In this document: positions 9,077-33,321 of the stretch, in pieces | Position numbering within the stretch: the stretch's first letter is position 1 | Layout of the letters: each line of letters starts with the position of its first letter | IMG/VR virus record: IMGVR_UViG_3300045747_000182 | Location: 116 to 64,115 of that record | Strand: one strand, 5' to 3' | DNA: 64,000 nucleotides | Source: a virus | The notes under the pieces: model-generated | What the model was told of the DNA's origin: nothing | What the model saw: the letters and a program-made list of their open reading frames with translations, nothing else | Database searches by the model: none | Position numbers and translations under genes: made by a program

Positions 9077-9202
9077 TGGAACTATACCTATGCTTCGCTC
9101 TTGCTTATATGCTGTGGGAAAACTGGTCTCTCACACAAGTAATTCTTCAGTTACGACATAACCAGAAGAACTATATCTCCATGTTAACTGACAAGGATAC
9201 CG

Positions 9203-9685
9203 ATGAAGAATTTAAAGATACAAGTCTCAGCGATACCCCCGATCGAAAAGGACATTAAGAAACTTCTTCTTGATATCCTTAACGACTACTGTAAACGGTT
9301 TAATGTTACATGCACAACAAATAAAACCGAAATACACATCTCGTTTATTAACTATGAGGAGTATATATCTTCAGGCCTTGCTACTCACGCGCCTGACTAT
9401 AACAAAATTATGGTTCAGATTGGTGACCCATTCCTGACAAGCGTAAACAGTGATGACTTTTCTGTTGAACCTAACAGTTACACTCTTACGACCTTCATCT
9501 GCACTATATGTCACGAACTCGTACATGTATGTCAATACCTGACAGGTCGTAAGGGTTCAGCACTAAAGGGTAACCACAACAAAGACGACCCCATCGAAGG
9601 TTACTACTTCGATCCTGCAGAAGTTGAGGCCAGAGCCTTGGAAAGCTTTTACAGAGCAAAATACGGACAAAAATTATATGACTAA
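9203..9685 (+). CDS. Putative zinc metallopeptidase-like protein
   Basis: HELVH motif and downstream EVEA. Confidence 0.55.
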   Translation: MKNLKIQVSAIPPIEKDIKKLLLDILNDYCKRFNVTCTTNKTEIHISFINYEEYISSGLATHAPDYNKIMVQIGDPFLTSVNSDDFSVEPNSYTLTTFICTICHELVHVCQYLTGRKGSALKGNHNKDDPIEGYYFDPAEVEARALESFYRAKYGQKLYD

Positions 9686-11528: not shown

Positions 11529-11678
11529 TGAGTCTGGCCTGTATACCTTGGTGGGTCTACGATCTGGAATACCAGTATCATCTTGCCAAACAATCTGGCT
11601 GCATGGAATCCGAGTGGGTTCCTGAATGGAGCATTGCTATTGATGCTTACAACTACCGTAACTTAACGTACTTTAAAT

Positions 11679-14770: not shown

Positions 14771-16984
14771 ATGAATCCACTAGACTATCTCACGGCACGA
14801 GTTGAGAAAGTAGTAGTCAACTCCGACAAGATTTACAACGAGGGTGCTCGCCTTCTGGCACACTATCCAACATGGGAATACGAACTTGAACGCTTTATTA
14901 ATGAAAGTTGGGATACTCTCCTACGATACTGTATACGAAACAAAAATGCTAAGTTTACTGCAACCGTCAAACTTACCTTTGCTAGTGACCTCATTGGCAA
15001 ACGGGTGGTTAGGGCTATTGGTGGTGATGAATCAGACATTAAGTCTACTCTTGCCATCGGTGATCTCCTCCTTGAAACGTTTCTTCAGGATGGTCTAATT
15101 GATATCTTCAGGGAATACAATGGGATCAAGGCTCCCTACATGGTACGGATTGTCAATCAGACATGTGATATTAAGCCCACACTTATTGGCACCGTCTTTG
15201 AGCCTCCGTTACCCATCACAGGATTGTTCAGTGGAATTACCAAAGAACCCTTTATCAAAGGCTGGACCAACGGTAAACTGTTTTACGACTACCTCGACAG
15301 ACCCTTTGTTAAGGCACTTGAGACGCTTAGACAGCAGCCTTGGGCTCTCAACAACCCTCTCCTAACTGCTATTCAAAGCAATCCACCACCAGAAACTCTT
15401 GCTCTGGTAGACGCCGATGGTGAAATCCATGAGTGGAATATCCACCATGAGAACCTGCACCTGCCCAAGAAGCTTACTCATACAGATAGTACTGCTTTTG
15501 CCGGAAAGAAAGATCCCAAGCTACAGCGTCTGGTAAGTAAGTACTTTGAGTATGTTCAGGTAGTACGCAAAGCGGAGTTGGTACAGTCACAAGGGTACCC
15601 ATTCTACCAAGAAGTCAGCTGTGACTACCGTGGCCGGATATACTATGCAGAATCCTTTCTGGAATTCCAAGGTAGTGACTTGGCCCGTAGTCTGTTCTTG
15701 TTTCATAACAAGAAGGTGGTTGATCAGCGTGGCTTCTACTGGCTATGTATTCATGCAGCCAGTTGCTTTAATCGATCCTTCACTATTGAAGATCTTCGTT
15801 TGGTAAAGTACTTCGAGACAGACTACATAAACTATCTGCAGAAGGAAGGTCTTGACACTATATCCGTGGATAAGATGACACTCGATGACCGCTACAAATG
15901 GGTCATCCACAATATGGATATGGTCAAGGATGTCTCAGCCCGTAAACTAATCATGGACTACGCGGAAAAACCCTATAGCTTCCTTGCTGTATGTATGGAG
16001 ATCACAAAATACTATGACTGCAAGAAAGCAGGTATCCCTTGCTTGAGTGGCTTTCCAGTACCTATTGATGGCAGTAATAACGGCTGGCAACATCTGGCAG
16101 CTATGAGTAAGGATGCTCAAGCAGGTGAACTTGTTTCTCTGACTAACACACCTATTCAAAAAGACTTCTACGTGGCTGTAGCAAAAGAGCTTATCACTCT
16201 GATGCCTGAATGGTTCTCCGAAAAGAAAATCCCCATGAAGCATATCCGTAAGGGTATCGCTAAACGGGGGTCTATGACTCGGGCCTACTCAGCCGGACGT
16301 AATCGTATTGCAAAGAACATGTACGATGACTGCCATATGGAAGGGTTTACTGTTAAATACGGTATTGATGAGAATACCTGCGGTGAACTGGCAAAGAACC
16401 TTATTGAGGCAATCAATGCTGTCTGTGCCGGACCTCTTCAAACAACCAAATACTTACAAAAGATTGCTGAGCATGAGCTTAATAACAGTCGCAACTCTTT
16501 ATCTTGGCATACTCCAAGCGGATTTCCTGTCGTTTATAAGGCCTTTTTACAGCACGAACGTAAACAACGAGGTACTATCAAGGGTATCGACGGGAACAAA
16601 GATGGGAGAGTAATGCATGTACTTAAAGTTGATGTCCTTAATCAAGAGACTGGCGAAAAGGTGCCATGCCGTAGAAGTTTTGCAAGTGGTATCAGTCCTA
16701 ATGTTGTACACAGCTATGACGCAGCCCACATGGCAAATACAATCGTCGCTTTTAACGGCAGTTTCGCTGCTGTCCATGATTCATTCTCAGTACACGCATC
16801 GGAAGTTGACTTCCTACAAGACGTAACTAAAATGACGTTCATCGCGCAATACGATGTGGACAACTTCTTTGATATCCTGATGGATACTTTGATGCTGCAT
16901 AAGGATACTTTCATGTTCCCTAAACCTGAAACAGGTAACTTAAACCTGAAGGAAGTCAACGAGAGTAAATACTTCTTTTGCTGA
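14771..16984 (+). CDS. Single-subunit T7-type DNA-dependent RNA polymerase
   Basis: CDYRGRIY, motif A PIDGSNNG, motif B KGIAKRGSMTRAYS, PNVVHSYD, motif C VHDSF. Confidence 0.95.
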   Translation: MNPLDYLTARVEKVVVNSDKIYNEGARLLAHYPTWEYELERFINESWDTLLRYCIRNKNAKFTATVKLTFASDLIGKRVVRAIGGDESDIKSTLAIGDLLLETFLQDGLIDIFREYNGIKAPYMVRIVNQTCDIKPTLIGTVFEPPLPITGLFSGITKEPFIKGWTNGKLFYDYLDRPFVKALETLRQQPWALNNPLLTAIQSNPPPETLALVDADGEIHEWNIHHENLHLPKKLTHTDSTAFAGKKDPKLQRLVSKYFEYVQVVRKAELVQSQGYPFYQEVSCDYRGRIYYAESFLEFQGSDLARSLFLFHNKKVVDQRGFYWLCIHAASCFNRSFTIEDLRLVKYFETDYINYLQKEGLDTISVDKMTLDDRYKWVIHNMDMVKDVSARKLIMDYAEKPYSFLAVCMEITKYYDCKKAGIPCLSGFPVPIDGSNNGWQHLAAMSKDAQAGELVSLTNTPIQKDFYVAVAKELITLMPEWFSEKKIPMKHIRKGIAKRGSMTRAYSAGRNRIAKNMYDDCHMEGFTVKYGIDENTCGELAKNLIEAINAVCAGPLQTTKYLQKIAEHELNNSRNSLSWHTPSGFPVVYKAFLQHERKQRGTIKGIDGNKDGRVMHVLKVDVLNQETGEKVPCRRSFASGISPNVVHSYDAAHMANTIVAFNGSFAAVHDSFSVHASEVDFLQDVTKMTFIAQYDVDNFFDILMDTLMLHKDTFMFPKPETGNLNLKEVNESKYFFC

Positions 16985-17063: not shown

Positions 17064-17636
17064 ATGTATATGAACTACGTTGTGTACAGCCATCATAGGT
17101 TAACTGATTGGGGTACTTTCTATATTGGTCAAGGTAAAAACCGAAAAAGAGCATACAGCAAAAGTAACCGTAACAAACACTGGATAAACACAGTAAATAA
17201 ATATGGTTATTTTATTATTGTAAGAGCCACCAATCTAACTAAGGAACAGGCCAACCAACTTGAAATATCTTTAATAAAGCAATACGGCAGAAAAGATAAA
17301 CAAGAAGGCCGCTTAGTTAACCAAACGGATGGCGGTGAAGGTAATACCAGACTCACAAACAGTCAAAAAAAAGCCATACAAAAGTCAAACAGCACCAGGA
17401 AAGTAACAGAGGAAACTAAACGAAAAATCTCTGAATCTTTAAAAGGTAAATGTTTATCTGAAGAAACCAAAAACAAGATGTCAATGCTCCGAAAAGGAAT
17501 TTGTCATTCAGAAGAACACAAATATAAACTAGCACTTGCAAACAAGCTACGATTTAATAAAATAACTTTACAGGAATATAATGAACTCTTATCAATCCAT
17601 AATCGCGAAAAGCCGCTACGCCCGTTATCTCCCTGA
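17064..17636 (+). mobile_element. Free-standing GIY-YIG homing endonuclease with NUMOD3-like repeats
   Basis: VVY...[23 protein letters not shown]; repeats [29 protein letters not shown]; A-rich; overlaps RNR start. Confidence 0.75.
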
Positions 17637-21036: not shown

Positions 21037-21082
21037 AAAAAATAACCCCTACCGGAGTAATCCAGTAGGGGGTTTTTTATTT
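21035..21082. terminator. Bidirectional intrinsic terminator between convergent blocks
   Basis: A-tract, CCCCTACCGGA-gtaa-TCCAGTAGGGG stem, T-tract. Confidence 0.9.
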
Positions 21083-21083
21083 G

Positions 21084-24000
21084 CTAGTTCATGAAGTAAA
21101 CTAAGCCTCGACGAGCCATCTCCTTGATCTTCTCAAGGTAGTAATTCTTCTCTTTCTGTCCAAGCTTCTGCCACTCACTCAACTTACTCTTGCTTTTGTA
21201 TTCACCTTTATCATCTTTGTAAACAGAGTTCAAGCTGATTTGTTGGTAACTATGCACCAACTTAGCAGCCATCTTTCCGGATATCGTTAAACTATCTTCC
21301 TTAGAGTTAATATCAAAGGGTAAGCTTTCCATAGTCTTAACAATCATCAAGTCTTTTTCACTTGGTTTAGGACCATCTCCAGCTTTATACCTTTCGACAT
21401 TACCTTTAGAGTAACCATACATGAGCCTCCAGTTCATAAGCAAACCTTTGAACATACCTTTAGCTCCAATGTCTACCTCTTTTTCAACCGACAAATTGCG
21501 CAGACCATCATCGTACTGTTTAGTAAAGTCAGAGATAAGAGCATCCTGAACGTTCCACTCAAGTACCTTTGGTAAGACAATATTGTTAGCCACATGCATA
21601 AACGCAAGATAGCTGTCGGTATTAAGAATCAAGTTATCAAACACAGATGCCACAAACTTCATATCCTTAGGTGCTTTACCACCGTTGATATAATTAAGAG
21701 TTTCAGCAACAAGAACCGACTCACGGTATTGTCCAAGGATAGGGCCAATCTGATTACGTGCGGCACTTCCGGGCTCCGGCACATAATGAACATCATCAGG
21801 GCGCTTACCCGTTTTAGGATCTACGTCTTGATAACCCTGAATCATCTTCTCTTTGGCACGCCCCATAGAATCCACTTGAGAAACCGTTTTAGGTATTCGC
21901 GTGGTAGTACCGTCGGCATTAGAGATCTGCATGAAGTCGCCCGTAGGTTGGTTCATGAAGCTACCAATACCAAGAGTCTCACCCCAATAGCCTTTCGCTT
22001 GTGGTAATCGGTTAAGTGTTTGAAGGATAGACACCAAATGCTTAGGTAAAGCCATTTGATTCATGTCAACAACTGACTTGAGTGTTGCATGGAAGATATC
22101 GTTCAAACCTTCAACAAGTTTAGCTCGGCTATTGTCGTATAAAGGTAACAGCTTTTGAGTTAGCTCGGGATTCTTTTGAAGGAACTTAACTGCCTGATCA
22201 AAATTGTATTGAGCAGCTTTGCCGTAGTCAGTAGTCAGCAGTACACCCTTACCAAATTCGTCAGCCTTACTAAAGTCTTTTGCATCAATTGTCTTATTAA
22301 AAAAGTCTTGCCATGCTTCTTTCAGTCCAGGGATATTAGCAGGAACAGCTGTATGGATTGTTTTGTCAGCTGCTACCTTCATAAAGTAAAACCGTGGGTT
22401 ACCATCAGGCTGAGTAGACTCAAAACCACCCTCATGTGCAACAAACGGATCCCACAACATACCTGTCCGGCGAAGAACAACCTCGTTACCGATATCAGCA
22501 GCAAGGAAAGCCCGACCTGCAGAATTCATGTCGATATCTGTGGTTGCTTTAGGTGTAAAGGACAATCCCTTTTCTTTTGCATTCAGATAATCTGCTGCAT
22601 CGAGGTAAGCTTGCAAACGGAATCCCCAATTCTTCTTGGTAGACCCATTAACAAAGTTAGTAATTACCTGCTGTTGCTTTGGCGTCAGCTGAAACCCCTC
22701 AAGAGTTTTAGGGTTCAAACCCGCTGTGACAATACCGTTTTTATCTGTAGGAATAACTGATTTTAGCACTGCACCAATCTCTGCTGCTTTACCAATAAAT
22801 TCAGGACTAACCAAGCTAACCATGTCATGAATTTGTAATGACTCGGTACGCACACCACGCTCTGATCCAACATCAAGGTTCTTACCTAGCACTGCCAAGA
22901 AAGAGAACTCTTTTTGTTTATCAGTCAAATCAAAGTTCTTTTGATTGAACTGCGTTTGCATACCCTTCCAGATTTCTCCGGCTTCCATTTTGCTAATTGG
23001 ATTGGTGTGCCATTTAGGAGTGTTGCTGACATTCATTGCTACATTAACACCGCCAAGGGTAGCACGCAATGGTAGATTACCCTGCATATTTAAGTCTTCG
23101 GCGTCATTATAAGCGCGTTGAACAACATAGTCTGCCCAATGAGGTGCGTAACGAAGACCACCATGAAGAATGTTTTGAGAGTTGTAATTCAAAGTCTTCA
23201 TCAGGCCAGTTGCTTGTGCGCGAAATGCTGAAGTCTCAGTAGCACCGTCTGCTGAAAGACCCATCAGCTTAGATACATTGGGGATACCTTGGATAGGTAG
23301 AGGTAAGCGAGTACGGGCGTCTTTATTGGCTGTAAATGAGTTGCCGCCGCCCTCTATACTAGGTAAAGGTAAAGCTCCTGCAGCATCATGAATAGCATTA
23401 ATACCAAACAAGATACCATAAAATGCGCGTTCAGGTGAAGGTACATACCCCACAGACCCAAGAATACGCATAGTCTCAGTCATCACAGGTACTTCTGTCT
23501 TGTTAACACGGTTAGGTGCTCCGCGACGAGTATTGATTTGTGCTCCAACTGGATTACCAAAGTTAGTAACTGGCGTAGCTTGCGACCGACCACGACCGCC
23601 TTCAGTAAGGTCAGCTGCAAGGCCACGTGAAGAAGTAATAAACTCGCGGCCATTAATCGGGCTGAATTGGTACATTTCTTTACCGTCAACTATATCCCTT
23701 AGCATTGTACCTGACTCAACTGCAGCGTTAAGCAGAAGAGCACCGCCATAATTTGAGTTCATTGTAGACAGCGGTTTAAGAGCTTGTCCTGTTAATGGAT
23801 CTACAGCAGTACGCCTTGTAAGGTTTTGGAGGCCTTTACCGAATACACCAATAGCAGTGTCTCTATCAATCTTACCTACTTTGGCTTGTGGTTCTACAAT
23901 ACCTTCATCTTCAAACAAAGAACCAAATTCGTTGCTATTAAGGAAGTCCAATGAGTCAGCCGCCTCTTTATGTCCACTGGCAATATCCCCATCTTTAACT

Positions 24001-24698
24001 TCTTCAGCACCCATAAAAATTGGAGCGGTAATAGCCAATACTTTCGTGGCAAGGGCAGCTGCTGCCGGAGCACTCTTAAGGTGATAACCTTCCATAAGAG
24101 CTACAAGACCGTTCGAATGGGCGTTCATACCAATACCACCATCAATTTGGGATACTGTCATTGAATTCAGGGTATCGCCAATCCGACGAGCAGTCTTCAT
24201 GATAGTCGCTGACTCTTGAGTATCAGGTCTAGCCATAGAAAAAGCTTGCTGAAGCTCTTCTTCATTACGGAAACCCTCGGAACCCCGCAAAGCATTAAGC
24301 TTTTGCAGTCTCATAGTTTCTTCGTAGTGCGCTCTGGCTTGTTCAATGTTCAAAGGTAGACCGTCCGGCCCCATTGCTTCCAATTGGGGTTGCCCTTGAT
24401 TAGGGAAGGGTTCTTGAACAGCTTCTTCCGGCTGAGCTTGCTGTGCAAATTCATCGGTAAACTCAGGTACACTATAATTGTTTGCACTCCCTGTAGACTG
24501 TCTATTCTCGGGAAGATCACCCATAGCATTTGCACGAGTATAATCCAGCGCAGACTGGTCCATAATAAGACCTTGACCTGCCAGGTCTTGTCCAAAGTTC
24601 TTTTGGGTATTAGCTGACGGAGGTACCGGAGCAGGCTTAGGAATCTCAATAGGGGTTGTCTGGGAATTAAAGTTGCCAGAGCTTGAAAACTTACTCAT
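21084..24698 (-). CDS. Internal virion protein with N4 virion-RNAP-like single-subunit RNA polymerase domain
   Basis: Ordered motifs: DYVVQRAY..LNMQGN (R528), DIDMNSAG (D723), K817-x7-Y825G, SVFDN (D1021); last gene of the ejection-protein block. Confidence 0.8.
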   Translation of the reverse strand: MSKFSSSGNFNSQTTPIEIPKPAPVPPSANTQKNFGQDLAGQGLIMDQSALDYTRANAMGDLPENRQSTGSANNYSVPEFTDEFAQQAQPEEAVQEPFPNQGQPQLEAMGPDGLPLNIEQARAHYEETMRLQKLNALRGSEGFRNEEELQQAFSMARPDTQESATIMKTARRIGDTLNSMTVSQIDGGIGMNAHSNGLVALMEGYHLKSAPAAAALATKVLAITAPIFMGAEEVKDGDIASGHKEAADSLDFLNSNEFGSLFEDEGIVEPQAKVGKIDRDTAIGVFGKGLQNLTRRTAVDPLTGQALKPLSTMNSNYGGALLLNAAVESGTMLRDIVDGKEMYQFSPINGREFITSSRGLAADLTEGGRGRSQATPVTNFGNPVGAQINTRRGAPNRVNKTEVPVMTETMRILGSVGYVPSPERAFYGILFGINAIHDAAGALPLPSIEGGGNSFTANKDARTRLPLPIQGIPNVSKLMGLSADGATETSAFRAQATGLMKTLNYNSQNILHGGLRYAPHWADYVVQRAYNDAEDLNMQGNLPLRATLGGVNVAMNVSNTPKWHTNPISKMEAGEIWKGMQTQFNQKNFDLTDKQKEFSFLAVLGKNLDVGSERGVRTESLQIHDMVSLVSPEFIGKAAEIGAVLKSVIPTDKNGIVTAGLNPKTLEGFQLTPKQQQVITNFVNGSTKKNWGFRLQAYLDAADYLNAKEKGLSFTPKATTDIDMNSAGRAFLAADIGNEVVLRRTGMLWDPFVAHEGGFESTQPDGNPRFYFMKVAADKTIHTAVPANIPGLKEAWQDFFNKTIDAKDFSKADEFGKGVLLTTDYGKAAQYNFDQAVKFLQKNPELTQKLLPLYDNSRAKLVEGLNDIFHATLKSVVDMNQMALPKHLVSILQTLNRLPQAKGYWGETLGIGSFMNQPTGDFMQISNADGTTTRIPKTVSQVDSMGRAKEKMIQGYQDVDPKTGKRPDDVHYVPEPGSAARNQIGPILGQYRESVLVAETLNYINGGKAPKDMKFVASVFDNLILNTDSYLAFMHVANNIVLPKVLEWNVQDALISDFTKQYDDGLRNLSVEKEVDIGAKGMFKGLLMNWRLMYGYSKGNVERYKAGDGPKPSEKDLMIVKTMESLPFDINSKEDSLTISGKMAAKLVHSYQQISLNSVYKDDKGEYKSKSKLSEWQKLGQKEKNYYLEKIKEMARRGLVYFMN

Positions 24699-27600
24699 TT
24701 AATAATCTCCTAGTTCTTTCTGCAAATACTTTGCGAAAGCTGGTGTTGTTCCAAACACAGGCAATGTTCTTACTAAAGTCTGTGTCTTGTGTCCGGGTTT
24801 AGCGGATAGAGCATCATCTATTTTGTTTAGATATGCTAAAGCAGGGGCTTGATCAGCAACATTAGAGGCTATTGTTGCAGCAAATCCTTTTGCTTTTGTA
24901 GATTCGGGTACTGTTGGTGAGATAGCATCCCATACGCGTTGTCCTGATCCAAGGAATCCGGCCTGACCTATAAAGCGTTGAAACTTCTTGTCATCTTTAA
25001 GCCATTCAGGTGGGGATTCGCCGTACTTAATAAGGTCTTTCATATACAACGCAAAGAAGGTGAGAGCCATCATCATAGCAGCCGTAGCAGCAGCGTTAAC
25101 TTGATCTGCTGAACCTGACTTGCGAAGATCTTTTAGCAACAACGGCAACACATTTGCTGTGAACGCCGAAGTGTAACCCTGAAACTGAGTAAACAATTGC
25201 AGATAAGGATCGTTGTAAAACTTTGGCCGATTCATTTTTGTAGGATGAATAACAGCTTCAGTTGTAAAATTATGAGCGCCTGTAGTGAGTTGTTCCCGCA
25301 TGCGTTGTTCATAATCAGGATGTGATGGTTCTGCGTTAAGCATCCAATCAACATCCACACCAATACGTATCAGATGCTCTCTTGCATCTTGTGCCTTTTG
25401 TGTAGGAGGCCCATTAGGGCTATCCTTAAGGTCTTGCAGTATAGTGTTGTTCCAGTTGTTAATAGCATCAGCACCAATAGATAACTTAGCAAAGCGAGTA
25501 ATGTTAGTTACACTGGTTAGACCAGTCATCTTAAAGAAACCTTCAGTCCACTTACGAAATATTCCATTAATAACATCTTGCCTGTGACCCATATCACCTT
25601 CGGCAGAGAATCCATGAACAAACAAAGTGTTACGGTAATCTTTTACAAGTGGTGACTTCTCAGGATTCTTCCCAAGAGATTGTATTGCATTGGCCATTTC
25701 CGCACCAAAGCCTTTTAAGAGTGCTTTAGTTGCCTTCAAAGCTTGAGGCATTGTCAAATGACGATAGACCTGAGCGAACTCTACGGTACTAGAGATAGCA
25801 GCCAAAGGAAGACTACTAACCACAGAAAGGAAATTAACAGTATCAAGGGCACCTTTCACATAAGGGTTATTTACAGGGTGATACTCACCATTACGCATTG
25901 CAATCCAGTCTTGAAGCTCTTTGGCAAACATAGATCCACGCTCAGGGCTGATAGATCCCTCGTCAATTGCCCCTTTAACCAGAGCCGCCAGATGACTTCC
26001 ATTTTTACCTAAAAGGTTTTTATGAGTATAAATAGCTGCACCTTTAGCTGCCAAAGAACTGGCATTGGCAAGGGGGTCGTGATGCAGGAACTTATGGAAG
26101 GCTGTCTTGACTGCAGGGTCATTTAATGCTTGTTCAGTTCTATTTTTTAAATCAGCTAGAGGATCAGAAGCACCAAAGAAAGCTTCCATTGGGTCTGTAA
26201 TTGCATTGACATCTACGTTGTTAAGTATCTTGTTAACAACTTCGTCTGCTTCGTGCGGAGCTAGTTTCATGTGTTGCATCAAGAGCTTTTTGAATTCTCC
26301 TGTATTACGAGCAATAGCTTGTTTGTTAACGGGTTTACTTTCTAGGGCCTGTTGTAAAGATAGCTCTTGTCCGGTTACTCTGTTGTACTCCTTAACCAAT
26401 GCACCAAGCTTTTCAGTGTAAGCAATAATACCCTCACGGTACTTAACATTGTGAGCCCCGATGTCTGCATTAAGGTCATACCGAGTTACAGCATCACGAA
26501 CTCCTTTAACGTCAAGACCTTCACTAACACGATTCAGCTTAAGGATTGCTTCAGTGATTTTAGGATCAGACAAAAGCATACTGATTTCAGCAAGAGACTT
26601 TGTGCCAAATGCTACTTTAATTTCGTCAGGAGAACCAAACATATTACTCAGTTGCTGAGCCATATGTCGTTGTTGTTCCTCAATACTGCCACCATTGAAA
26701 GCACGAGAAGAACCTAGCAGTGATTGTAATGCTAAAAGGTTATTACCTTCTTTACCATCGGCTGTAAACATATTTGACCACTTATCCCAAAGGCTTTTCA
26801 CACCTTTGTTCTGCCACCAATTGCTGATAGCACTAGTTACTCCAGAAGTTTCACGCCGGAGGTTTTCTGCTTGAGCTAGATCCGCAAGGTTTGCTTCTTC
26901 ACTACCTTGTACAGCACGATCAATCTGCTCAGACGCATTAGGTACATATCCAAAAGTGTTAATCAAGCTTGCTTGCCGTTGGAGATCATTCATCTTAGGT
27001 GTTACATCAGCGCTAGTAGTTCCACGTAACAGCAAATGACCACCTGCACCGAATGCACCACCAAGACCAACACCACCTGCGGAAGCATTCAGCACGCGGT
27101 TCTTCAACGCAGACATATCTGTTTGATTGTCAGGCAAACTCAGAGAACCTTGTTCACCGAAGTATTGAGTAAGCTCTTGTAAGCCTTCTGTTCCACCTTC
27201 AGCCAAAGCGTCGCCAACAACAATAGAAGGAAGACGACCCAAAGATCTTTCTGCAGTCCATTTTACTTGTTTAGTTGCTTGCTCTGCATCTTTAAACGCT
27301 TGCAGCTTACTGAAGTCAGTGATATCTTTAATAGACTTCTTGGCACTATCCAGTAGTGCTTCTTCTGCAGCTGGTTTTGAATAACCCTTTTTAACTAGTT
27401 CTTCAATAACCTTATCACGAGTTTCTTTTTGAAAGAAGCTACCGTGAATATGTCCAATAGAGAAATTGTCAAGTGCGGCCTGAAGAATACCTGAGCCAAT
27501 AGCAAAGGTTGCATTTTTACTTTCTTGGTTTTGCCATGTCTGTCCGGCGTAAACAATTGCAGGTGCAGACAAAGAAGCACCCATGGTTAGAGGTGCTGCA

Positions 27601-28526
27601 GCAGTAGCCGCAATTGAGAGCATCATTTGAGGTGCAGAAGCAAAGGCATTACCAACAAGCCAATCAGATGTTTTGGAAAAAGAATCAAGAGTCCACTTAC
27701 CGTCTTCATTAAACGCATTGCCATTACGAAGATTAGGCAGGTCACTTAAGTCAGCTTCGTAAGCATTTGTCTTACGCTGAGCCATTGTCTGCAAGTAATC
27801 ACTACCAATGGAGTTGCCAAGTATATCTAAACTTGCCCAAGCACCCTGCTTCATGCTGGCCATGCCTTGTTCCCAACCAGTAGCTATGTTACTTCGAGCT
27901 TCACCCTTATAGTTTTCATCAGACTTTATCTGTGCTGGGGCAATATAGTAGGGGTTGTTACCTTGATGGTCAAGAGTAGCACCATAAGATTTTGCGTCAG
28001 GCGCATAAAGCTTTGCCATGAAAGTATCTTCATTGAAAATACTGTTCATTGCATTAAGATATTTATCTTCTTTTGTTGGTGCTTTAAACTGTTGTCGGTT
28101 TATAGCCTTATCAAAGTCTGCAAAATCTCTGCGGTTACTTGCATTAGGGTCAAACGTAGTTGTATCCGCAAGACGGTTTGCAGCAAGGTAGTCGCTGAGA
28201 CCTTCTCCGCGATCGTTAACCAAGTCGCCTACAACTCGATTGTACTTATCTTTTTTCTCTGTAAGAACAGGCTTATTAAAACCCTTTTCAGCTCTAATAC
28301 GCCGCACCATTTCCGTTTGAGCATCTGCTCCAGTATAGGAAGGTGAGAAGTCTCCGGCTACAGTACCAATCTTCTGAGTTTCACGAGTGTTAACCGATGG
28401 TAGCCGCAGGGACGTACTGTCTAGTAACTCAAACGTGTCGCCATCCTTGTTGTATGGTACTTGCTTAAGAGGAGGAACATAAGGGACTTCTCCCTGTTGC
28501 CTTAATGCATCATCAAATTGCCCCAT
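24699..28526 (-). CDS. Large internal virion (ejection) protein with N-terminal SNase-like domain
   Basis: 1275 aa; DGDT..LRLPSVNTRE..DKYNRV near N-terminus; Ala/Gly-rich hydrophobic stretches. Confidence 0.75.
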   Translation of the reverse strand: MGQFDDALRQQGEVPYVPPLKQVPYNKDGDTFELLDSTSLRLPSVNTRETQKIGTVAGDFSPSYTGADAQTEMVRRIRAEKGFNKPVLTEKKDKYNRVVGDLVNDRGEGLSDYLAANRLADTTTFDPNASNRRDFADFDKAINRQQFKAPTKEDKYLNAMNSIFNEDTFMAKLYAPDAKSYGATLDHQGNNPYYIAPAQIKSDENYKGEARSNIATGWEQGMASMKQGAWASLDILGNSIGSDYLQTMAQRKTNAYEADLSDLPNLRNGNAFNEDGKWTLDSFSKTSDWLVGNAFASAPQMMLSIAATAAAPLTMGASLSAPAIVYAGQTWQNQESKNATFAIGSGILQAALDNFSIGHIHGSFFQKETRDKVIEELVKKGYSKPAAEEALLDSAKKSIKDITDFSKLQAFKDAEQATKQVKWTAERSLGRLPSIVVGDALAEGGTEGLQELTQYFGEQGSLSLPDNQTDMSALKNRVLNASAGGVGLGGAFGAGGHLLLRGTTSADVTPKMNDLQRQASLINTFGYVPNASEQIDRAVQGSEEANLADLAQAENLRRETSGVTSAISNWWQNKGVKSLWDKWSNMFTADGKEGNNLLALQSLLGSSRAFNGGSIEEQQRHMAQQLSNMFGSPDEIKVAFGTKSLAEISMLLSDPKITEAILKLNRVSEGLDVKGVRDAVTRYDLNADIGAHNVKYREGIIAYTEKLGALVKEYNRVTGQELSLQQALESKPVNKQAIARNTGEFKKLLMQHMKLAPHEADEVVNKILNNVDVNAITDPMEAFFGASDPLADLKNRTEQALNDPAVKTAFHKFLHHDPLANASSLAAKGAAIYTHKNLLGKNGSHLAALVKGAIDEGSISPERGSMFAKELQDWIAMRNGEYHPVNNPYVKGALDTVNFLSVVSSLPLAAISSTVEFAQVYRHLTMPQALKATKALLKGFGAEMANAIQSLGKNPEKSPLVKDYRNTLFVHGFSAEGDMGHRQDVINGIFRKWTEGFFKMTGLTSVTNITRFAKLSIGADAINNWNNTILQDLKDSPNGPPTQKAQDAREHLIRIGVDVDWMLNAEPSHPDYEQRMREQLTTGAHNFTTEAVIHPTKMNRPKFYNDPYLQLFTQFQGYTSAFTANVLPLLLKDLRKSGSADQVNAAATAAMMMALTFFALYMKDLIKYGESPPEWLKDDKKFQRFIGQAGFLGSGQRVWDAISPTVPESTKAKGFAATIASNVADQAPALAYLNKIDDALSAKPGHKTQTLVRTLPVFGTTPAFAKYLQKELGDY

Positions 28527-28539
28527 ATATTCCTTTCAG

Positions 28540-31500
28540 TTATTTAAGCTTAGACATTGCGTATTGATAAAACGCTGACTGCTCTTTGCTGTCTTCAAAT
28601 TTAAGTGTCTTATCTTTGACTTCTTTTTGGTAAGCCATTTTGATATCTTTCAAGGTATCAACACGACGGTTGTAGTATGCAGAAGGACTTTCATCCTCTT
28701 GCCGTTTAACTTTATTACTAAGCTTTGTATCTAAACCTGCAATCATATCCGCACTCATACGCTTGTTACCAATAGTAAAGTCAGCAGGACTAATACCTTG
28801 TTGAGCCACCAATCGGTTAGCTGCGATGTAAGGTGTTATGTCGTTAACAGTTACTTTACCTGCATCAATATTCTCTTTTTGATCAAGAATAAACTGACGT
28901 ACAGCTGCAGTTGTTATAGTACTCATTTCAGATTTAACACGAGGGTCTTGCGGATTCAACCCACTGGTAACAGCCCACTTAGCTGCTTGGTTAGCAATTG
29001 TAGCTGCGTCAAGACCTATTGACTTGGCATTGTTATGCTGGTCTTTAGGTGCGGCTGCACGAATAGCCGATTCAGTATCATCCTTAAGTTGCTTATGAAG
29101 TGAATCAAAGGTAGCTGCTTGTGCTGCCTTAGAGTGAAGAGCATCATCGTAGGGTACTGCACGATAACCATCGTACAAATAGCCCTTGTCAGGACTATTG
29201 CGCGAAAGGGTAGCTGCGTATTGATTCATTGGGATACCGTTAATCAAAACATCCTCATCACCTTTACGGCGACCTGTGGCGTACTTAACAGGTTGGCCCC
29301 ATACAACTTCGCCCATTAAAGGGCCAGCATTCATAGTGTACTTTTTAAGCTCACCAGTGTTAGTTACTGTTGTTTTGGGTTCACCAAGCAAAGAAGGGTC
29401 ACCAAGACGCTTAGGATCTTTACGAACTGACTCAATATACTTACGAACGTTATCTGGCGCGTAACCATCTTTAACGTATTCTGTGTGTTGAGCACGCAAG
29501 TCTTTAGTCATATCCCTCTCATCTTGCTGATCAAAGCTAATTTTTTGGCGATTCAATGCAGCATCTTCGGATTGCTCAAAGGTATGCCGCTTATCGGAGG
29601 TAGTAATAGTGTCAACAGACGCACCGCGAAGAGCACGATTAATGTTGTCACCTGTAGCCGCACGAAAAGCTGCACCACCAATAAACCTAATAAGGTCTTT
29701 TTGGTTGAACATACTATCTTTACCACCGTATAAATCTTTAAGAATACTTTCCCAAAAAGATTGCTTTTGTTCTGGAGGTAATTGTGCAGCAGTCTTTTCT
29801 GCTTCTGCCAAGGTTGGTTGATTATTTTGTGTAACACCCGCAAGATACTTATTAAGTAAATCAGTTGGTGGAGGAGGCACTTCGTTTGTCGCAGTAGGCG
29901 TGGGTTCCGAAGTAGTAGGTTCCGGAACTTCTTTACTTGAAAAGGGTGTCACTGCTCGGTTAAATGCAGAGCTTTGAGGTTGTGGAATACTTACAACATT
30001 TCCTGTTGCAGGGTCTGTAACCTTATAAGTACCCTCTGCCCTACGTTCTGCGTTTGGAGAAGCGTCATTAGGTTTAGTCAGCCAATTAGGGCTTACTGTT
30101 TGAACATCATATCCAAATTTGCTTATTGAAGGAGGTGGTGCTACAGGGTTTAAAGGGTCAACAACCGTGGGGTTTACCTTGCGACCGTTTGGCCCTGAAG
30201 AGTATTCAATATCTTCTCCGTATTTTTGTCGGTTGATATTACGAAATTGACCTGCTGTCATTCCACGTAGGTGTGGGTTTGCCGCCAAATCTTTTTCTTG
30301 CAAGAAGCTGTCAAGCTTTGCATCCTGAGGTGCATTAACTACTTTAGCATATTCTGATGGGTTTAAAAAGTGAGCACCATACAGATCTGCATTTGTTGGG
30401 GTAATGCCTTTATTAACTAAAGCCTTACTGTTTTCATTAGTATAATCTTTCATCAGATCTGTTTGAACTACTCCTGAGTAATATTCAGGGGACTTGAATG
30501 CGGTTTTAGCGTAAGAAGCATTTGGGTTATTCTTTTTCAAGCCTTCAAAAGTACCTGCCGTAAACTGGCCAAGTCCCCCTGCAGTAGAGCGAGGGTTTTG
30601 TGCTGTTGCTTTGCCTCCAGACTCAATACCAAAAGTTTTGTTTTGATATTCGGGGGACCATGTCGCCGTTAATGGAGCACTAATTACAACAGGATCAATT
30701 CCCTGACGAGACAACCTTGCAGAACTATCGTAGGCTAGAGGGGACTCAACATATTCGTCACCATCAGCATACCCACGAAGCTGCTTATCAATCTCTTCGT
30801 CAATTTTCTTTGTACGAGTTTTAAGAGCTTCTTGAGCTTGTCCAGCCATACCACCTAGCTTAGGCGCTTCTACAGGTACATCCTTTTGACCAAACACTCT
30901 TTTGATTTTGTCAAGGTAAGATTCATTCTCTGGTACAGGAACTTCGGTAGTACCTCCTGCGTAACCGTTAATCTGCTTATTGATTTCATCATCCAACTTT
31001 TTGGTACGAGTCTTCAATGCTTCCTGAGCTTGTCCTACCATACCACCTAGTTGTGGTGCCTCAACTGGAACATCTTTCTTACCAAGAACACGCTTAAGCT
31101 TCTCCAAGTAAGTTTCTTCTACAGGAGCCGTAACAGGAACTCCGGTAGTACCGTCCGCATATCCCAAGCGATGTTTCTTTGGACCTACTTGAGGCATAAC
31201 CGCAAGTTGATTCTGCAGTTGTACTTTACCAGTCATTGTAGGAACCATACCGCCATTAGCAAAGCCATTTACAGGCATACCTTGGGCCTGACGTCCTTGC
31301 TGGACCATCCTCTGAATAGCGGGTTTGTTACGAGGATCTTGAGCAGCAGCACGAGGAATAACAGCTTCTCCGGGAGTAAGCATTGCGGGTACTGTGTCGG
31401 AGGGCATTACAGGGTGACGTCCACCAAGAGGTCTGCCACCTACGCGAGGTTGTCCTGACAGAGGCTTCCCAATGACTCCACCGTTGGCATGCCCTTGAGT

Positions 31501-31800
31501 AAGCTGCGAACCATTACCTTGAACAGTAGATGTCATAGCAGGGTTAATTGCTTCAACATTCTTTGAGCCAAGAATCATACCTGCACTCAGAGGACCACCA
31601 TGCTCGGACATCTTAGCTTTGTGCTCATTCTCTTTATGTCCCAGAGATTGATTAGCTTTGTTAGCTGCTTCCATAAGTTTAATTTCATGAAGCTCTTGCT
31701 TGCGAGTTTCTTCCAACTCTGCTTTGTTATCTTCACGTTTTTCCTTAGCAGCAAACTTCAAGTATTCCCGATGTTGCTTGCCGGATAGTGGTCCATTCAT
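28540..31800 (-). CDS. Large internal virion protein with lytic-transglycosylase-like domain and internal duplication
   Basis: 1086 aa; GIESGG..NPRSTAGGLGQF...LYGAHF; SDTVPAMLTPGE; two approx. 65-aa tandem units. Confidence 0.75.
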   Translation of the reverse strand: MNGPLSGKQHREYLKFAAKEKREDNKAELEETRKQELHEIKLMEAANKANQSLGHKENEHKAKMSEHGGPLSAGMILGSKNVEAINPAMTSTVQGNGSQLTQGHANGGVIGKPLSGQPRVGGRPLGGRHPVMPSDTVPAMLTPGEAVIPRAAAQDPRNKPAIQRMVQQGRQAQGMPVNGFANGGMVPTMTGKVQLQNQLAVMPQVGPKKHRLGYADGTTGVPVTAPVEETYLEKLKRVLGKKDVPVEAPQLGGMVGQAQEALKTRTKKLDDEINKQINGYAGGTTEVPVPENESYLDKIKRVFGQKDVPVEAPKLGGMAGQAQEALKTRTKKIDEEIDKQLRGYADGDEYVESPLAYDSSARLSRQGIDPVVISAPLTATWSPEYQNKTFGIESGGKATAQNPRSTAGGLGQFTAGTFEGLKKNNPNASYAKTAFKSPEYYSGVVQTDLMKDYTNENSKALVNKGITPTNADLYGAHFLNPSEYAKVVNAPQDAKLDSFLQEKDLAANPHLRGMTAGQFRNINRQKYGEDIEYSSGPNGRKVNPTVVDPLNPVAPPPSISKFGYDVQTVSPNWLTKPNDASPNAERRAEGTYKVTDPATGNVVSIPQPQSSAFNRAVTPFSSKEVPEPTTSEPTPTATNEVPPPPTDLLNKYLAGVTQNNQPTLAEAEKTAAQLPPEQKQSFWESILKDLYGGKDSMFNQKDLIRFIGGAAFRAATGDNINRALRGASVDTITTSDKRHTFEQSEDAALNRQKISFDQQDERDMTKDLRAQHTEYVKDGYAPDNVRKYIESVRKDPKRLGDPSLLGEPKTTVTNTGELKKYTMNAGPLMGEVVWGQPVKYATGRRKGDEDVLINGIPMNQYAATLSRNSPDKGYLYDGYRAVPYDDALHSKAAQAATFDSLHKQLKDDTESAIRAAAPKDQHNNAKSIGLDAATIANQAAKWAVTSGLNPQDPRVKSEMSTITTAAVRQFILDQKENIDAGKVTVNDITPYIAANRLVAQQGISPADFTIGNKRMSADMIAGLDTKLSNKVKRQEDESPSAYYNRRVDTLKDIKMAYQKEVKDKTLKFEDSKEQSAFYQYAMSKLK

Positions 31801-31809
31801 AGGAACTCC

Positions 31810-32349
31810 TTAAAATAATTTCAATCGTTTAGCTGCCATAAGACCTAGCATACCCCATCCAACAGGACCCATTGCACCCATCATAGCTTCTCCGGCCCCA
31901 CCTGCAGCGGCGGCACCCATAGGAGCACCTGTGAGGGTAGCTGCAGTGAGACCACCTCCAGCGGCTTCAGCGCCAAGAACTGCTGGTGCTGTTCCTGCAA
32001 CTGCCAAAGAGCTTTCTGCAGCAGGAGCAAGTGCAATACCTGCTTGTGGAGCACCAGCTGAAAGACCTGCGTTTGTAGCTGGTGTTGCAATACTGTATTG
32101 GCTTAGAGGTGCCTTATAATTAATACCTGCATCGGCAGCGTTAATCATTTGATTGGCACCACGATTCATGGCAATGCCAGTAACAAGCCCTGTAAGAGGG
32201 TCTTGTTGTTCCTGAACATGCTGTATAGGCTGTGCTTCAGGTTGTTGTTGATAAGTTACGGTATTAGGTACCGTCTGTACGGCTGGTTTTTGTTGGTCCA
32301 TCCATGCCCAAGGATCTTGGTAACTCATATTAGTGCTCGCTCCAGCCAC
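31810..32349 (-). CDS. Ala/Gly-rich putative DNA-ejection protein
   Basis: 179 aa, hydrophobic C-terminus MGPVGWGMLGLMAAKRLKLF. Confidence 0.6.
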   Translation of the reverse strand: MAGASTNMSYQDPWAWMDQQKPAVQTVPNTVTYQQQPEAQPIQHVQEQQDPLTGLVTGIAMNRGANQMINAADAGINYKAPLSQYSIATPATNAGLSAGAPQAGIALAPAAESSLAVAGTAPAVLGAEAAGGGLTAATLTGAPMGAAAAGGAGEAMMGAMGPVGWGMLGLMAAKRLKLF

Positions 32350-32608
32350 TATTTTGGCCGATGGATGGTTGTTCTACTGGAGCAGGATGCAATGCCGCAA
32401 TAGCTGCGTTAGATTGGTCCATACCAATAGGTGCAAAACCATGGGTCATGGGTATACCACCACCCTTAGAGCCACCTGCCTGAGGTGCTTCCGACGTGTG
32501 TGCTCCGGCGAACATATTTGCGTAGGAGCCACTACCGTGAAAGTTTGGTTGAGTGAGAGCTGCCGGAGCAGCAGCAATGTTAGAGGGGACTCCTGAGCCG
32601 CCAGCCAT
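32330..32608 (-). CDS. Small Gly-rich virion-associated protein
   Basis: 92-aa ORF coupled within the operon. Confidence 0.5.
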   Translation of the reverse strand: MAGGSGVPSNIAAAPAALTQPNFHGSGSYANMFAGAHTSEAPQAGGSKGGGIPMTHGFAPIGMDQSNAAIAALHPAPVEQPSIGQNSGWSEH

Positions 32609-33321
32609 TATTTACCTCCTCCACCAGATTGGGTAGTTGTCTGCCGTGCTGGATTACCATACACAGTAGAAGCATACCGCTGAAGACCTTGCCAACCTGC
32701 GTCAAGTTGACTTTGATTAATACCACGCTCTTGATTACCGAGATTAGCCAGTCCGGATGCCGTAGCATTAGCCAACTGACTGGACTGTCCAACAGAGGAA
32801 CCAATAGCAGACTCTGCCTGAAGACGATTCTGGAACATCTTGTTCTCGTAGTCAGCATTTACTTGGGCAAGCTTACCAGTAGTGTCTGCGTTCTGAGCAC
32901 CCTGCATGACAGCACTACGCGCAGAACCCAAAGCACCATTCTGACCGAAGTTGCTGTTGATTCCTGCAGTAGCTTTTTGTGCATCAAGAACAATAGCATT
33001 CTTTTGAGCGTCAAGAGTAGCAGCAGATGGAGCCATCGCCATACTACTTAAGCGAGCTTGTTGGCTGGATAACGTATCAAGTCCGGCTCCACCTGTCTGA
33101 GCAATGGCTTGCCCACCACCACCGAAGGCTGCTTGTTGATTCCCTGTTGCACCAGCTACCTGCGAAAGGTTTCCTGACTGGAACATTCCCTGAGCATTTT
33201 GATTGGCATTAACCAAATAAGGCATTAACTCCGGTGGAACATTCTGCGAAGTAGTTGTGGAGCCACCCCCACCCGAGCCTCCTCCAGCACGTTTAGTTAT
33301 TTTACCGTAACTATATTTCAT
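32608..33321 (-). CDS. Putative DNA transfer/pilot protein
   Basis: GGGSGGGGSTTTSQNVPPELMPY N-terminus; Q/N/A/G-rich. Confidence 0.65.
   Translation of the reverse strand: MKYSYGKITKRAGGGSGGGGSTTTSQNVPPELMPYLVNANQNAQGMFQSGNLSQVAGATGNQQAAFGGGGQAIAQTGGAGLDTLSSQQARLSSMAMAPSAATLDAQKNAIVLDAQKATAGINSNFGQNGALGSARSAVMQGAQNADTTGKLAQVNADYENKMFQNRLQAESAIGSSVGQSSQLANATASGLANLGNQERGINQSQLDAGWQGLQRYASTVYGNPARQTTTQSGGGGK

Follow-up and report, generated by a model that had tools for sequence, protein, structure and literature searches.

A stand-alone candidate virion-type RNA polymerase whose gene closes the ejection-protein operon of a podophage related to CRP-7

The window analysed here, a stretch of 64,000 nucleotides from the IMG/VR virus record IMGVR_UViG_3300045747_000182 (positions 116 to 64,115), carries on its minus strand a virion/ejection operon that ends with the gene P0001, an open reading frame which, as a check of the sequence confirmed, codes for 1204 aa (Table 1). 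An AGGAG ribosome-binding site (24707-24711) precedes the start of P0001, and the TAA of the upstream 1275-aa ORF (24699-24701) directly abuts its ATG, so that the two genes form a coupled stop-start. A terminator-like hairpin is located a few bases past the P0001 stop codon, where the plus-strand and minus-strand operons run towards each other. P0001 has a ribosome-binding site, a start and a stop of its own, which supports it as a separate gene and no part of a polyprotein. The 83 representatives of the family are either about 1100-1400 aa in length or shorter fragments, the longest of them (1413 aa) being far below the 3500 aa of the N4 protein, and in two relatives the arithmetic of gene coordinates shows that the P0001 homologue and the gene upstream of it occupy different reading frames. 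The sequence-only reading had proposed a polymerase encoded as its own gene, which is borne out by these data, and had expected annotation pipelines to call it hypothetical; annotation pipelines do so, and gp33 of Roseobacter phage CRP-7, discussed below, is likewise entered as 'hypothetical protein'.

The genes preceding P0001 in the operon encode two giant and two small proteins. The C-terminal part of the 1275-aa protein matches a virion structural protein family, and tblastn related this protein to LUZ24 gp50 ('phage particle protein') and to CRP-7; the SNase-like domain PF00565 at its N-terminus (E 0.011) falls short of the cut-off. Counterparts syntenic to the 1086-aa giant carry SLT or lysozyme domains in the relatives. 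In addition, the 237-aa protein shows a weak match to phrog_4287, 'DNA ejection protein' (E 0.0059). Altogether, the genes at 21084-33321 encode 3,981 aa with no cysteine at all.

Table 1. Genes and features at the P0001 locus and at the T7-like RNA polymerase gene (positions in the window).
Feature	Position	Strand	Basis
Ordinary T7-like RNA polymerase, 737 aa, 13 Cys	14771..16984	+	PF00940 E 3.7e-55
Bidirectional intrinsic-terminator-like hairpin: A-run, GC-rich stem, T-run	21037..21080		sequence read directly
P0001 gene, 1204 aa, divergent single-subunit RNA polymerase	21084..24698	-	ORF, AF2 model, hhalign
Aromatic C-terminus V-Y-F-M-N-COOH	21087..21101	-	family alignment, superposition
Motif C, residues 1015-1026; F1020-D1021; D1021 second catalytic Asp	21621..21656	-	family alignment
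Long beta-hairpin between motifs B and C, residues 913-943	21870..21962	-	AF2 model strands E614-627, E633-644
Motif B / O-helix, residues 813-827, K817-x7-Y825-G826	22218..22262	-	family alignment
Motif A, residues 720-737; catalytic D723; G728 at D+5 steric-gate position	22488..22541	-	family alignment
T/DxxGR-NPQ region, residues 523-545; conserved R528, Q539, R545	23064..23132	-	family alignment, hhalign
N-terminal domain, ~residues 96-390, collinear with N4 mini-vRNAP N-terminal domain	23529..24413	-	VIA-align, hhalign
N-terminal tail, ~95 residues, predicted disordered, poorly conserved	24414..24698	-	pLDDT 40-54 over residues 1-90
Junction 5' of P0001 gene	24699..24711	-	sequence read directly
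Cysteine-free giant virion protein, 1275 aa, upstream of P0001	24699..28526	-	phrog_6958 E 9.6e-27
Cysteine-free giant, 1086 aa; its transglycosylase domain is a feature of T7 gp16-type ejection proteins	28540..31800	-	phrog_4067 E 1.7e-14
Small proteins of 179 and 237 aa, both without Cys, heading the cysteine-free block	31810..33321	-	0 Cys

Searches of Pfam, PHROGs and PDB sequences, as well as tblastn against cultured phages, returned no match to P0001. PF00940, the family of T7-type polymerases, did not recognise it at E up to 1, and the same limit gave no match of PF21769, PF21894, PF21624 or PF21867, all four precomputed on every N4-like vRNAP found, to either P0001 or its neighbours. 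As no curated family recognises the protein, its homology rests on profile-profile comparison and predicted structure. At such divergence the failure of PF00940 does not exclude homology, and it is the comparison of sequence profiles that shows it: hhalign aligned the P0001 family profile with nine N4-like mini-vRNAP regions (Prob 97.6, E 3.8e-12, 501 columns) and with seven T7-like RNA polymerases of the same phage group (Prob 96.1, E 2.9e-9, 571 columns), all four motifs being in register in the latter alignment.

The AF2 model of residues 300-1204 (pLDDT 80.6, pTM 0.83) was compared with known structures in several ways. In VIA-align, the best match was T7 RNA polymerase (Z 25.3, 522 aligned residues, T7 267-883), followed by the yeast mitochondrial enzyme (Z 22.4) and N4 mini-vRNAP (Z 19.6, 589 aligned, mini-vRNAP 272-1061), with 508-589 residues aligned across the three. 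Foldseek against the PDB yielded 73 significant matches, every one of them a single-subunit RNA polymerase, and all BFVD matches were either phage T7-like polymerases or segments of N4-like vRNAPs. An exhaustive fold search of 48,161 chains placed single-subunit RNA polymerases in the five top rows (Z 14-21); family-A DNA polymerases came next at Z 5-11 (best 11.3) with ~320 residues aligned, and everything else scored below 5. Modelling and Foldseek comparison with N4 mini-vRNAP and T7 RNA polymerase, the check that had been suggested along with the original identification, gave a fold match with RNA polymerases, the only proteins among the significant PDB hits of Foldseek.

The sequence-only reading had quoted the polymerase motifs by residue and nucleotide, and scripted string location found all of them in place. 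DYVVQRAYNDAEDLNMQGN begins at residue 523, LQAYLDAADYL at 695, TDIDMNSAG at 720, KAPKD at 1008 and SVFDN at 1018; D723 corresponds to nt 22530-22532 and D1021 to nt 21636-21638, and K817, Y825 and G826 are also where they had been reported. The conservation of these residues was assessed in 61 P0001 homologues with a mean column identity of 16%. The sole invariant columns are R528, R545, D723, G728, G746, R769, Y825, D1021 and N1038, while K817 and G826 are conserved in at least 90% of the sequences. Since the catalytic columns are invariant at such low mean identity, the match to the polymerase motifs is more than chance.

P0001 has the T/DxxGR motif, and after it the N-P-Q and the basic residue, in register with the N4 and T7-like enzymes, with one additional residue separating Arg and Gln. 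R528 and R545 occur in 61/61 homologues, Q539 in 52, N537 in 48, and Gly at position 527 in 25. The profile alignment pairs R528, Q539 and R545 with R424, Q434 and R440 of N4, and hhalign pairs them with R289, Q300 and R306 of the T7-like polymerase. In motif A, both D723 and G728 (61/61) are aligned with D559 and G564 of N4 and with D433 and G438 of the T7-like enzyme; D723 is found at the end of model strand E420-425. Motif B has the right spacing, with K817 in 60, Y825 in all and G826 in 57 of the 61 sequences. K817 and Y825, which hhalign pairs with N4 K670/Y678 and T7-like K498/Y506, are located in and just past model helix H510-523. D1021 (61/61) lies in the turn joining model strands E718-720 and E723-727, so that the metal-binding pair D723/D1021 has the expected secondary-structure setting in the AF2 model.

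Two deviations noted earlier, Asp813 at the position of the motif B Arg and Met724 after the motif A Asp, are indeed present. Position 813, equivalent to T7 R627 and N4 R666, is occupied by Lys in 29 and by Asp in 20 of the 61 family members, and an Asp at this basic position could alter NTP binding. The Phe-Asp of motif C had been taken for the N4 virion-RNAP form. N4 does have F950-D951, a feature common to the subfamily of P0001; however, Phe is confined to this close subfamily and the wider family mostly has His, as do T7-type polymerases. Because 33 of the 61 members carry His at residue 1020, against 23 with Phe and 5 with Tyr, Phe-Asp is no diagnostic N4 signature. F1020-D1021 is paired by hhalign with H669-D670 of the T7-like enzyme. 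The long beta-hairpin between motifs B and C is placed in the model like the promoter specificity loop of T7 and N4 polymerases and, judging by its position, may be its counterpart. At the C-terminus, Tyr is found at 1201 in 30/61 and Phe at 1202 in 36/61 homologues, position 1203 being Tyr, Met or Phe; the end of the model (residue 905) aligns with T7 residue 883, so that the two C-terminal ends superpose.

P0001 might instead be a DNA polymerase of family A or some other template-dependent polymerase; family-A DNA polymerases share the palm and fingers core and appear at Z 5-11 in the fold search. Yet the RNA polymerases reach Z 14-25 with 480-590 residues aligned, including regions outside that core, against ~320 residues for the DNA polymerases, and P0001 has the T/DxxGR motif specific to single-subunit RNA polymerases. 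Pol I carries a Glu steric gate at the D+5 position of motif A. In the P0001 family this position is invariably Gly, as in T7 (G542) and N4 (G564). Moreover, the phage genome already encodes a family-A DNA polymerase at 9624-11528, and such an assignment of P0001 appears extremely improbable. Hence, in agreement with the initial identification of a T7/N4-type enzyme, the fold, the profile homology with motifs in register and the invariant catalytic residues make it almost certain that P0001 is a very divergent homologue of the T7/mitochondrial/N4 single-subunit RNA polymerases.

Whether such a protein could be a degenerate polymerase fold, serving as a purely structural ejection protein without catalysis, deserves consideration, given that the motif B Arg is gone and that curated RNA polymerase families do not recognise it. 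In 61 sequences of 16% mean identity, however, there is no or almost no variation in the metal-binding Asp pair, the Lys and Tyr of the O-helix, the D+5 Gly and the Arg of T/DxxGR, whereas the rest of the sequence has changed almost wholly, and this is the pattern expected from purifying selection on an active site. Loss of catalysis is therefore very unlikely, and P0001 is predicted with good confidence to be an active RNA polymerase.

Compared with the mini-vRNAP of N4 gp50 (residues 998-2103), P0001 exhibits the same right-hand single-subunit fold of ~1100-1200 residues, is collinear with it from the N-terminal domain through motif B, according to the profile alignment (E 3.8e-12), and shares the T/DxxGR Arg, the Asp and D+5 Gly of motif A and the Lys-x7-Tyr-Gly of motif B. 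In the N-terminal domain, VIA-align of model 90-369 with mini-vRNAP 21-300 gave a middling Z of 8.2 (165-172 residues aligned), tied with winged-helix matches; the hhalign alignment with N4-like vRNAPs begins at P0001 residue 212, which equals mini-vRNAP 150. Both genes end an ejection-protein gene block of a short-tailed phage. However, mini-vRNAP is the middle third of a 3500-aa chain, while P0001 is a separate protein whose polymerase part, like that of T7, extends to the very C-terminus and finishes in an aromatic tail; its flanking giants have no detectable similarity to the N- and C-terminal domains of gp50, and the motif B Arg of N4 is not conserved in its family. The phage itself is no schitovirus: it has a genome of ~64 kb and a single full-length T7-like RNA polymerase in place of the split RNAPII of Schitoviridae, whose late genes are transcribed by the host enzyme. 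From T7-type polymerases, which are its top structural match, P0001 differs by being ~450 residues longer, by its location in the late virion operon instead of among early/middle genes, and by its lack of cysteine.

The absence of cysteine extends beyond the window. Of the 74,236 residues in the P0001 family, 14 are Cys, 52 of the 61 members having none, and N4 gp50 likewise contains no cysteine in 3,500 aa, as opposed to the T7-like polymerases of the same phages with 1.6% Cys and 9-16 Cys each. The chance of finding no cysteine in 1204 aa is ~7e-11 at the 1.9% Cys of this phage's enzymes and ~7e-4 at the 0.6% of its other virion proteins. Since Cys is also missing from the scaffold protein of the phage and from one further virion protein, this property is suggestive but not specific. 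Together with the conserved position of the gene at the end of the operon, the gp50-like cysteine absence strengthens the view that P0001 is probably packed into the virion and ejected.

The fold, the homology and the catalytic residues would be equally compatible with a second active RNA polymerase of late synthesis that stays unpackaged and acts in the same infected cell, for example as a late-gene transcriptase or as a maker of replication primers; T7 and mitochondrial RNA polymerases can make primers for replication. However, in all genomes checked the gene closes the structural operon, coupled to a pair of ejection-type giants, and the most distal place in the late operon would not be expected for an enzyme needed to transcribe late genes. 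In addition, P0001 shares its cysteine absence with N4 gp50 and with its ejection neighbours and not with the cytoplasmic T7-like polymerases, which a purely cytoplasmic role leaves unexplained. We consider an unpackaged enzyme unlikely.

The second polymerase of the phage, the 737-aa T7-like enzyme, has as its nearest cultured relative CRP-7 gp30 (31% identity), and the unclassified podophage CRP-7 is also the nearest cultured relative of the phage. A P0001-type gene is paired with a T7-like polymerase in 9/9 informative genomes, including CRP-7, and the gene order at the operon end is the same in CRP-7 and in every related locus with enough upstream DNA. The sole P0001 family member found in a cultured phage is CRP-7 gp33 (QBQ72826.1), a distant one (hhalign Prob 99.5, E 1.5e-22, 676 columns). 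In CRP-7, gp35, gp34 and gp33, all three giants being Cys-free, converge in the same order on gp30. Differences are seen in the sequence of gp33, which has ~22% identity to P0001 over a 312-residue BLASTP alignment and a His-Asp motif C. The description of CRP-7 reports the T7-like polymerase alone (PMC6918029), and no published description of a P0001-type polymerase was found in the literature.

The only candidate promoter element is a 62-nt element present in two copies in the early region; the stem differs between the copies yet still pairs, and the 8-nt loop, compared with 3 nt in the N4 hairpin promoters, is identical. It occurs in these two copies only, and viral contigs gave no match to it. 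The number of sigma-70-like host promoter sites in the early region, 22 versus 17.2 +/- 4.1 expected, amounts to no enrichment. Of the two systems, it is only N4 for which packaging and hairpin promoters have been proven.

On balance, we favour the reading of P0001 as a stand-alone virion-type RNA polymerase which is made late, packaged and ejected and which starts early transcription; its function as the early-gene transcriptase, taken separately, is given a slightly better than even chance. The protein would roughly correspond, as a stand-alone enzyme, to the mini-vRNAP in the centre of N4 gp50, the sole addition being a disordered tail of ~95 residues at the N-terminus. It would be produced late, its gene being translationally coupled and the last in the ejection-protein operon, be packed in the capsid along with the two giant Cys-free ejection proteins, and enter the host through the tail in an unfolded state. 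Inside the cell it would start early transcription before any phage protein exists and probably help to draw the genome in, after which the T7-like polymerase, whose gene follows the start of the plus-strand block at a distance of ~23 kb, would take over middle and late transcription.

A variant of this scheme would have P0001 packaged and ejected, with a chiefly mechanical role as part of the ejectosome and as a genome-pulling motor, RNA synthesis being secondary or limited to a short leader. The evidence from context and cysteine content is the same for both. According to two published accounts, most of the T7 genome is pulled in by transcription, and the N4 vRNAP is the third ejection protein and helps genome transport (PMC13434306; PMC4496689). 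Such a role is, however, a shade of the virion-type reading. The motor would still need the conserved catalytic site, and a chiefly mechanical function seems improbable.

A more tentative generalisation is that CRP-7-type marine podophages might run their entire transcription without the host RNA polymerase, an injected, compact, Cys-free enzyme using promoters of a new kind to read the early genes and assisting genome entry, and the T7-like polymerase transcribing the remainder. If true, host-independent transcription would have been solved independently a third time, next to the giant vRNAP of N4 and the multisubunit virion RNA polymerases of jumbo phages, and giant carrier domains would prove dispensable for the packaging and ejection of a polymerase.

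The open reading frame of P0001, a 1204-residue protein, is uninterrupted on the minus strand of the window, which is the stretch from base 116 to base 64115 of a virus record of 64,134 bp, complete and bearing direct terminal repeats. A sequence-only reading had proposed this protein to be a stand-alone virion RNA polymerase (RNAP), and all motif strings quoted in its support were located by script at the residues and nucleotides assigned to them, including the putative catalytic aspartates D723 and D1021, K817, Y825 and G826, as well as an aspartate (D813) at the position of the motif B arginine and a methionine (M724) following the motif A aspartate. In an alignment of 61 family members, with a mean column identity of 16%, the sole invariant columns are R528, R545, D723, G728, G746, R769, Y825, D1021 and N1038, and K817, G826, K886, N982 and Q990 are conserved in at least 90% of the sequences, so that the proposed catalytic residues are found among the conserved columns. 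The Phe-Asp pair of motif C is indeed present in P0001, but its interpretation as a mark of the N4 form does not hold, since 33 members have His-Asp in motif C, 23 have Phe-Asp and five Tyr-Asp, which makes Phe-Asp a subfamily trait. The motif B arginine is no feature of this RNAP-like family either: the position equivalent to T7 R627 is occupied by lysine in 29 and by aspartate in 20 of the 61 members.

No match to P0001 was obtained in Pfam and PHROGs, permissive thresholds included, among all PDB sequences searched with phmmer and two family profiles, or among 50,697 phage records searched with tblastn. A word-indexed search recovered 28 relatives, and an exhaustive one 83 representatives at 50% identity. 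The family thus comprises at least 83 sequence clusters, all of them stand-alone enzymes separate from the virion RNAP (vRNAP) of Schitoviridae; the longest representative has about 1400 residues, and the family size is approximately one third of the 3500-residue N4 chain. As had been anticipated, all sources that name relatives of P0001 label them hypothetical.

Significant homology to known polymerases was detected only when a profile was used on both sides of the comparison. The hhalign matches of the family profile to the single N4 mini-vRNAP (the central domain of N4 gp50; E 0.11 and 0.048) and to the T7-like RNAP of the window alone (E 0.011) were weak, yet in the correct register, and an N4 target cut to the motif B-C region gave a spurious match only. 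Against a profile of seven T7-like RNAPs of the same phage group (A5), the probability was 96.1 and the E value 2.9e-9 over 571 columns, with R528 paired to R289, Q539 to Q300, R545 to R306, D723 to D433, G728 to G438, K817 to K498, Y825 to Y506 and D1021 to D670. Since the search for mini-vRNAP homologues listed only relatives of more than 70% identity, diverse schitovirus regions were gathered by tblastn; the profile of nine such regions (A6) gave a probability of 97.6 and an E value of 3.8e-12 over 501 columns, covering P0001 from residue 212 to 831 and pairing R528 with R424, R545 with R440, D723 with D559, G728 with G564, K817 with K670 and Y825 with Y678. R424, D559, R666, K670, Y678 and D951 are invariant in A6. 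These significant profile-profile matches identify the family as a genuine branch of the single-subunit RNAPs, and a very remote one. By these alignments it is about equidistant from T7-like and from N4-like enzymes, if slightly nearer to N4, whose alignment takes in the N-terminal domain as well. The invariant glycine at D+5 of motif A (G728) corresponds to T7 G542 and N4 G564, a position held in Pol I by the glutamate steric gate. Together with the T/DxxGR motif, this glycine points to an RNA rather than a DNA polymerase.

The AlphaFold2 model of residues 300-1204, built with 26 homologues as input (mean pLDDT 80.6, pTM 0.83), bears out the predicted fold, as single-subunit RNAPs top the Foldseek matches listed. 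A Foldseek search against the PDB returned 73 matches at E <= 0.001 (best 2.8e-11), and the top matches listed are all T7 RNAP, mitochondrial RNAP or N4 vRNAP. VIA-align superposed the model on the T7 RNAP elongation complex (Z 25.3, 522 residues aligned, T7 residues 267-883), yeast mitochondrial RNAP (Z 22.4) and N4 mini-vRNAP (Z 19.6, 589 aligned, residues 272-1061). In an exhaustive structure search of 48,161 chains, single-subunit RNAPs were the top five (Z 14-21) and family-A DNA polymerases reached Z 5-11 with about 320 residues aligned, noise being below 5. The named matches among BFVD viral models are to T7-like RNAPs of phages or to segments of N4-like vRNAPs, accompanied by a few uncharacterised proteins. 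In the model, the motifs fall in the secondary structure expected of them: D723 is placed at a strand end, K817 inside a helix, Y825 just past it and D1021 within a beta-turn-beta element. A long beta-hairpin (residues 913-943) between motifs B and C appears to occupy the place of the T7/N4 specificity loop. A second model, of residues 1-420 (pLDDT 73.9), is disordered up to about residue 95 and then forms a folded domain. Foldseek found no significant match for it (best E 0.065), T7 and N4 RNAPs heading the weak list, and in VIA-align N4 mini-vRNAP (residues 21-300) ranked first, though at a middling Z of 8.2 (165-172 aligned), tied with winged-helix proteins. Taken with the schitovirus profile alignment, this result suggests that nearly all of P0001 is collinear with mini-vRNAP.

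Features of the window and of two related loci (CRP-7, a cultured Roseobacter phage; L006, a metagenomic contig)
Feature	Position	Strand	Remark
P0001 gene	21084-24698	-	1204 aa
D723 codon	22530-22532	-	motif A
D1021 codon	21636-21638	-	motif C
1275-aa protein	24699-28526	-	virion structural family matched by the C-terminal part, LUZ24 gp50 'particle protein' included
1086-aa protein		-	transglycosylase domain
237-aa protein		-	weak ejection-protein match
179-aa protein		-	beside the 237-aa protein
Five consecutive late genes	21084-33321	-	0 Cys in 3,981 residues
Late virion block	55373 down to 21084	-	ends with the P0001 gene
Terminator-like hairpin	21037-21080		bidirectional, A-run/T-run flanks
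T7-like RNAP	14771-16984	+	PF00940, E 3.7e-55
Homing-endonuclease-like gene	17064-17636	+	NUMOD3/HNH type
dATP/dGTP diphosphohydrolase N-terminal domain	3910-4671	+	PF18909, E 3.1e-25
62-nt element, copy 1	56502-56563	+	early region
62-nt element, copy 2	56948-57009	+	early region
Homing-endonuclease-like gene, L006	17500-18006	-	same place as in the window
CRP-7 gp33 (L005)	7860-11567	-	annotated hypothetical

The P0001 gene closes the late virion block, which includes genes for terminase, portal, scaffold, major capsid protein, tail fibre and other virion proteins, and follows the gene of the 1275-aa giant. Residues 40-134 of this giant resemble a staphylococcal nuclease, at a sub-threshold score (PF00565, E 0.011, 16.7 bits vs a cut-off of 21). 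The TAA of the upstream gene abuts the P0001 ATG. A readthrough fusion of the two products was considered and rejected in view of an AGGAG ribosome-binding site eight bases 5' of the ATG and of relatives L006 and L007, in which the two ORFs lie in different frames; P0001 is therefore a separate protein with no readthrough extension, in line with the earlier claim of a gene of its own. The three giants amount to 3565 aa and might be regarded as gp50 cut into three, but no similarity of the neighbours to gp50 was found and the polymerase is last rather than central, so that this reading was rejected as well. The terminator-like hairpin lies a few bases past the P0001 stop, precisely where the replication and virion operons converge. 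The plus strand carries the replication genes and the T7-like RNAP, directly 3' of which lies a homing-endonuclease-like gene; a similar gene is found in L006. The window also encodes a PF18909 domain, a family linked to 2-aminoadenine (Z-base) genomes.

The cysteine content sets P0001 apart from its cytoplasmic counterparts. The 61 family members contain 14 cysteines in 74,236 residues, 52 of them having none, whereas the T7-like RNAPs of the same phages have 9-16 each (1.6% of residues). N4 gp50 likewise lacks cysteine throughout its 3,500 residues, as do the three giants in CRP-7 and in the metagenomic contigs L004, L006 and L007. In the window, the plus-strand ORFs of at least 150 aa, mostly replication and nucleotide-metabolism enzymes, hold 94 cysteines in 4,887 residues (1.9%; all 15 have 1-5%), and the other virion proteins 35 in 5,826 (0.6%). 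At the enzyme frequency, a chain of 1204 residues would lack cysteine with a probability of about 7e-11, and at the virion-protein frequency with one of about 7e-4. By these counts P0001, unlike its cytoplasmic sister enzyme, is under a constraint in common with proteins that are known, or can be expected, to pass through the envelope in unfolded form, which is indirect evidence for a place in the virion. The absence of cysteine across the late-gene block may be a usable marker of candidate ejected proteins.

The nearest cultured phage is CRP-7, whose T7-like RNAP is 31% identical to that of the window. It has the same layout, in which the series gp35, gp34, gp33 and the T7-like gp30 converge. 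Its gp33 is a distant member of the family (hhalign probability 99.5, E 1.5e-22), and the T7-like polymerase alone was reported in the CRP-7 paper (PMC6918029). In metagenomic contigs carrying near and far members alike, the order of large ejection-type proteins, RNAP-like gene and converging T7-like RNAP recurs. Phages with a P0001-type protein have a T7-like RNAP too, as seen in nine of nine informative loci (the window, CRP-7, L004, L006, L007, L008, L009, L019 and L020), two contigs too short to tell being left out of the count. The C-terminus of the T7-like RNAPs of this group, that of the window included, reads YFFC-COOH, and that of the RNAP-like family is the aromatic Y-F-(Y/M/F)-(N/T/S)-COOH. 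Both endings recall the FAFA tail of T7 RNAP.

The early region was inspected for promoters, and no enrichment of sigma-70-like sites was observed there. A 62-nt element is present in two copies between small ORFs, each consisting of a conserved CTTTCTCAG..TAACAGAGAGACC part followed by a hairpin. The hairpin arms differ and yet pair (GCACAG/CTGTGC vs TACATGG/CCATGTA), the 8-nt loop GGTAAGTA is identical, and no T-run follows. These repeats are candidate P0001 promoters; they could equally be RNA processing sites. The element had no match in viral contigs, and no other hairpin placement of its loop word was found. The palindromic word CCTTATAAGG occurs in too few copies to be judged as a promoter.

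A conserved single-subunit RNAP active site is present in a protein that stands alone, lacks cysteine and has its gene at the end of the ejection operon, in phages that carry a T7-like RNAP too. N4 vRNAP is packaged, ejected and reads the first genes (PMC4496689; PMC13434306). By analogy with this example, we infer that P0001 is packaged in the virion and then ejected, whereupon it would transcribe the first genes before the T7-like RNAP takes over. A virion-carried single-subunit RNAP has been regarded as the hallmark of the N4-like Schitoviridae, in which it is a 3500-residue chain, and recent N4 papers still call vRNAP unique to that family (PMC13434306). Full-text literature searches yielded no account of a compact virion-type single-subunit RNAP that stands alone, and none of CRP-7-type phages having a second polymerase. 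StenR_269's 'putative vRNAP' (PMC10747016) is a different giant protein, named on speculation, and falls outside the RNAP-like family.

The family occurs in a widespread marine phage group, and its cultured member, CRP-7, makes the proposed packaging open to bench test. If packaged, P0001 would be a new, very divergent promoter-specific RNAP, which might be of use as an orthogonal tool for transcription. It would further indicate that the polymerase domain alone is able to pass a podovirus tail, and would offer a natural comparison for the contribution of the N- and C-terminal domains of the N4 enzyme.
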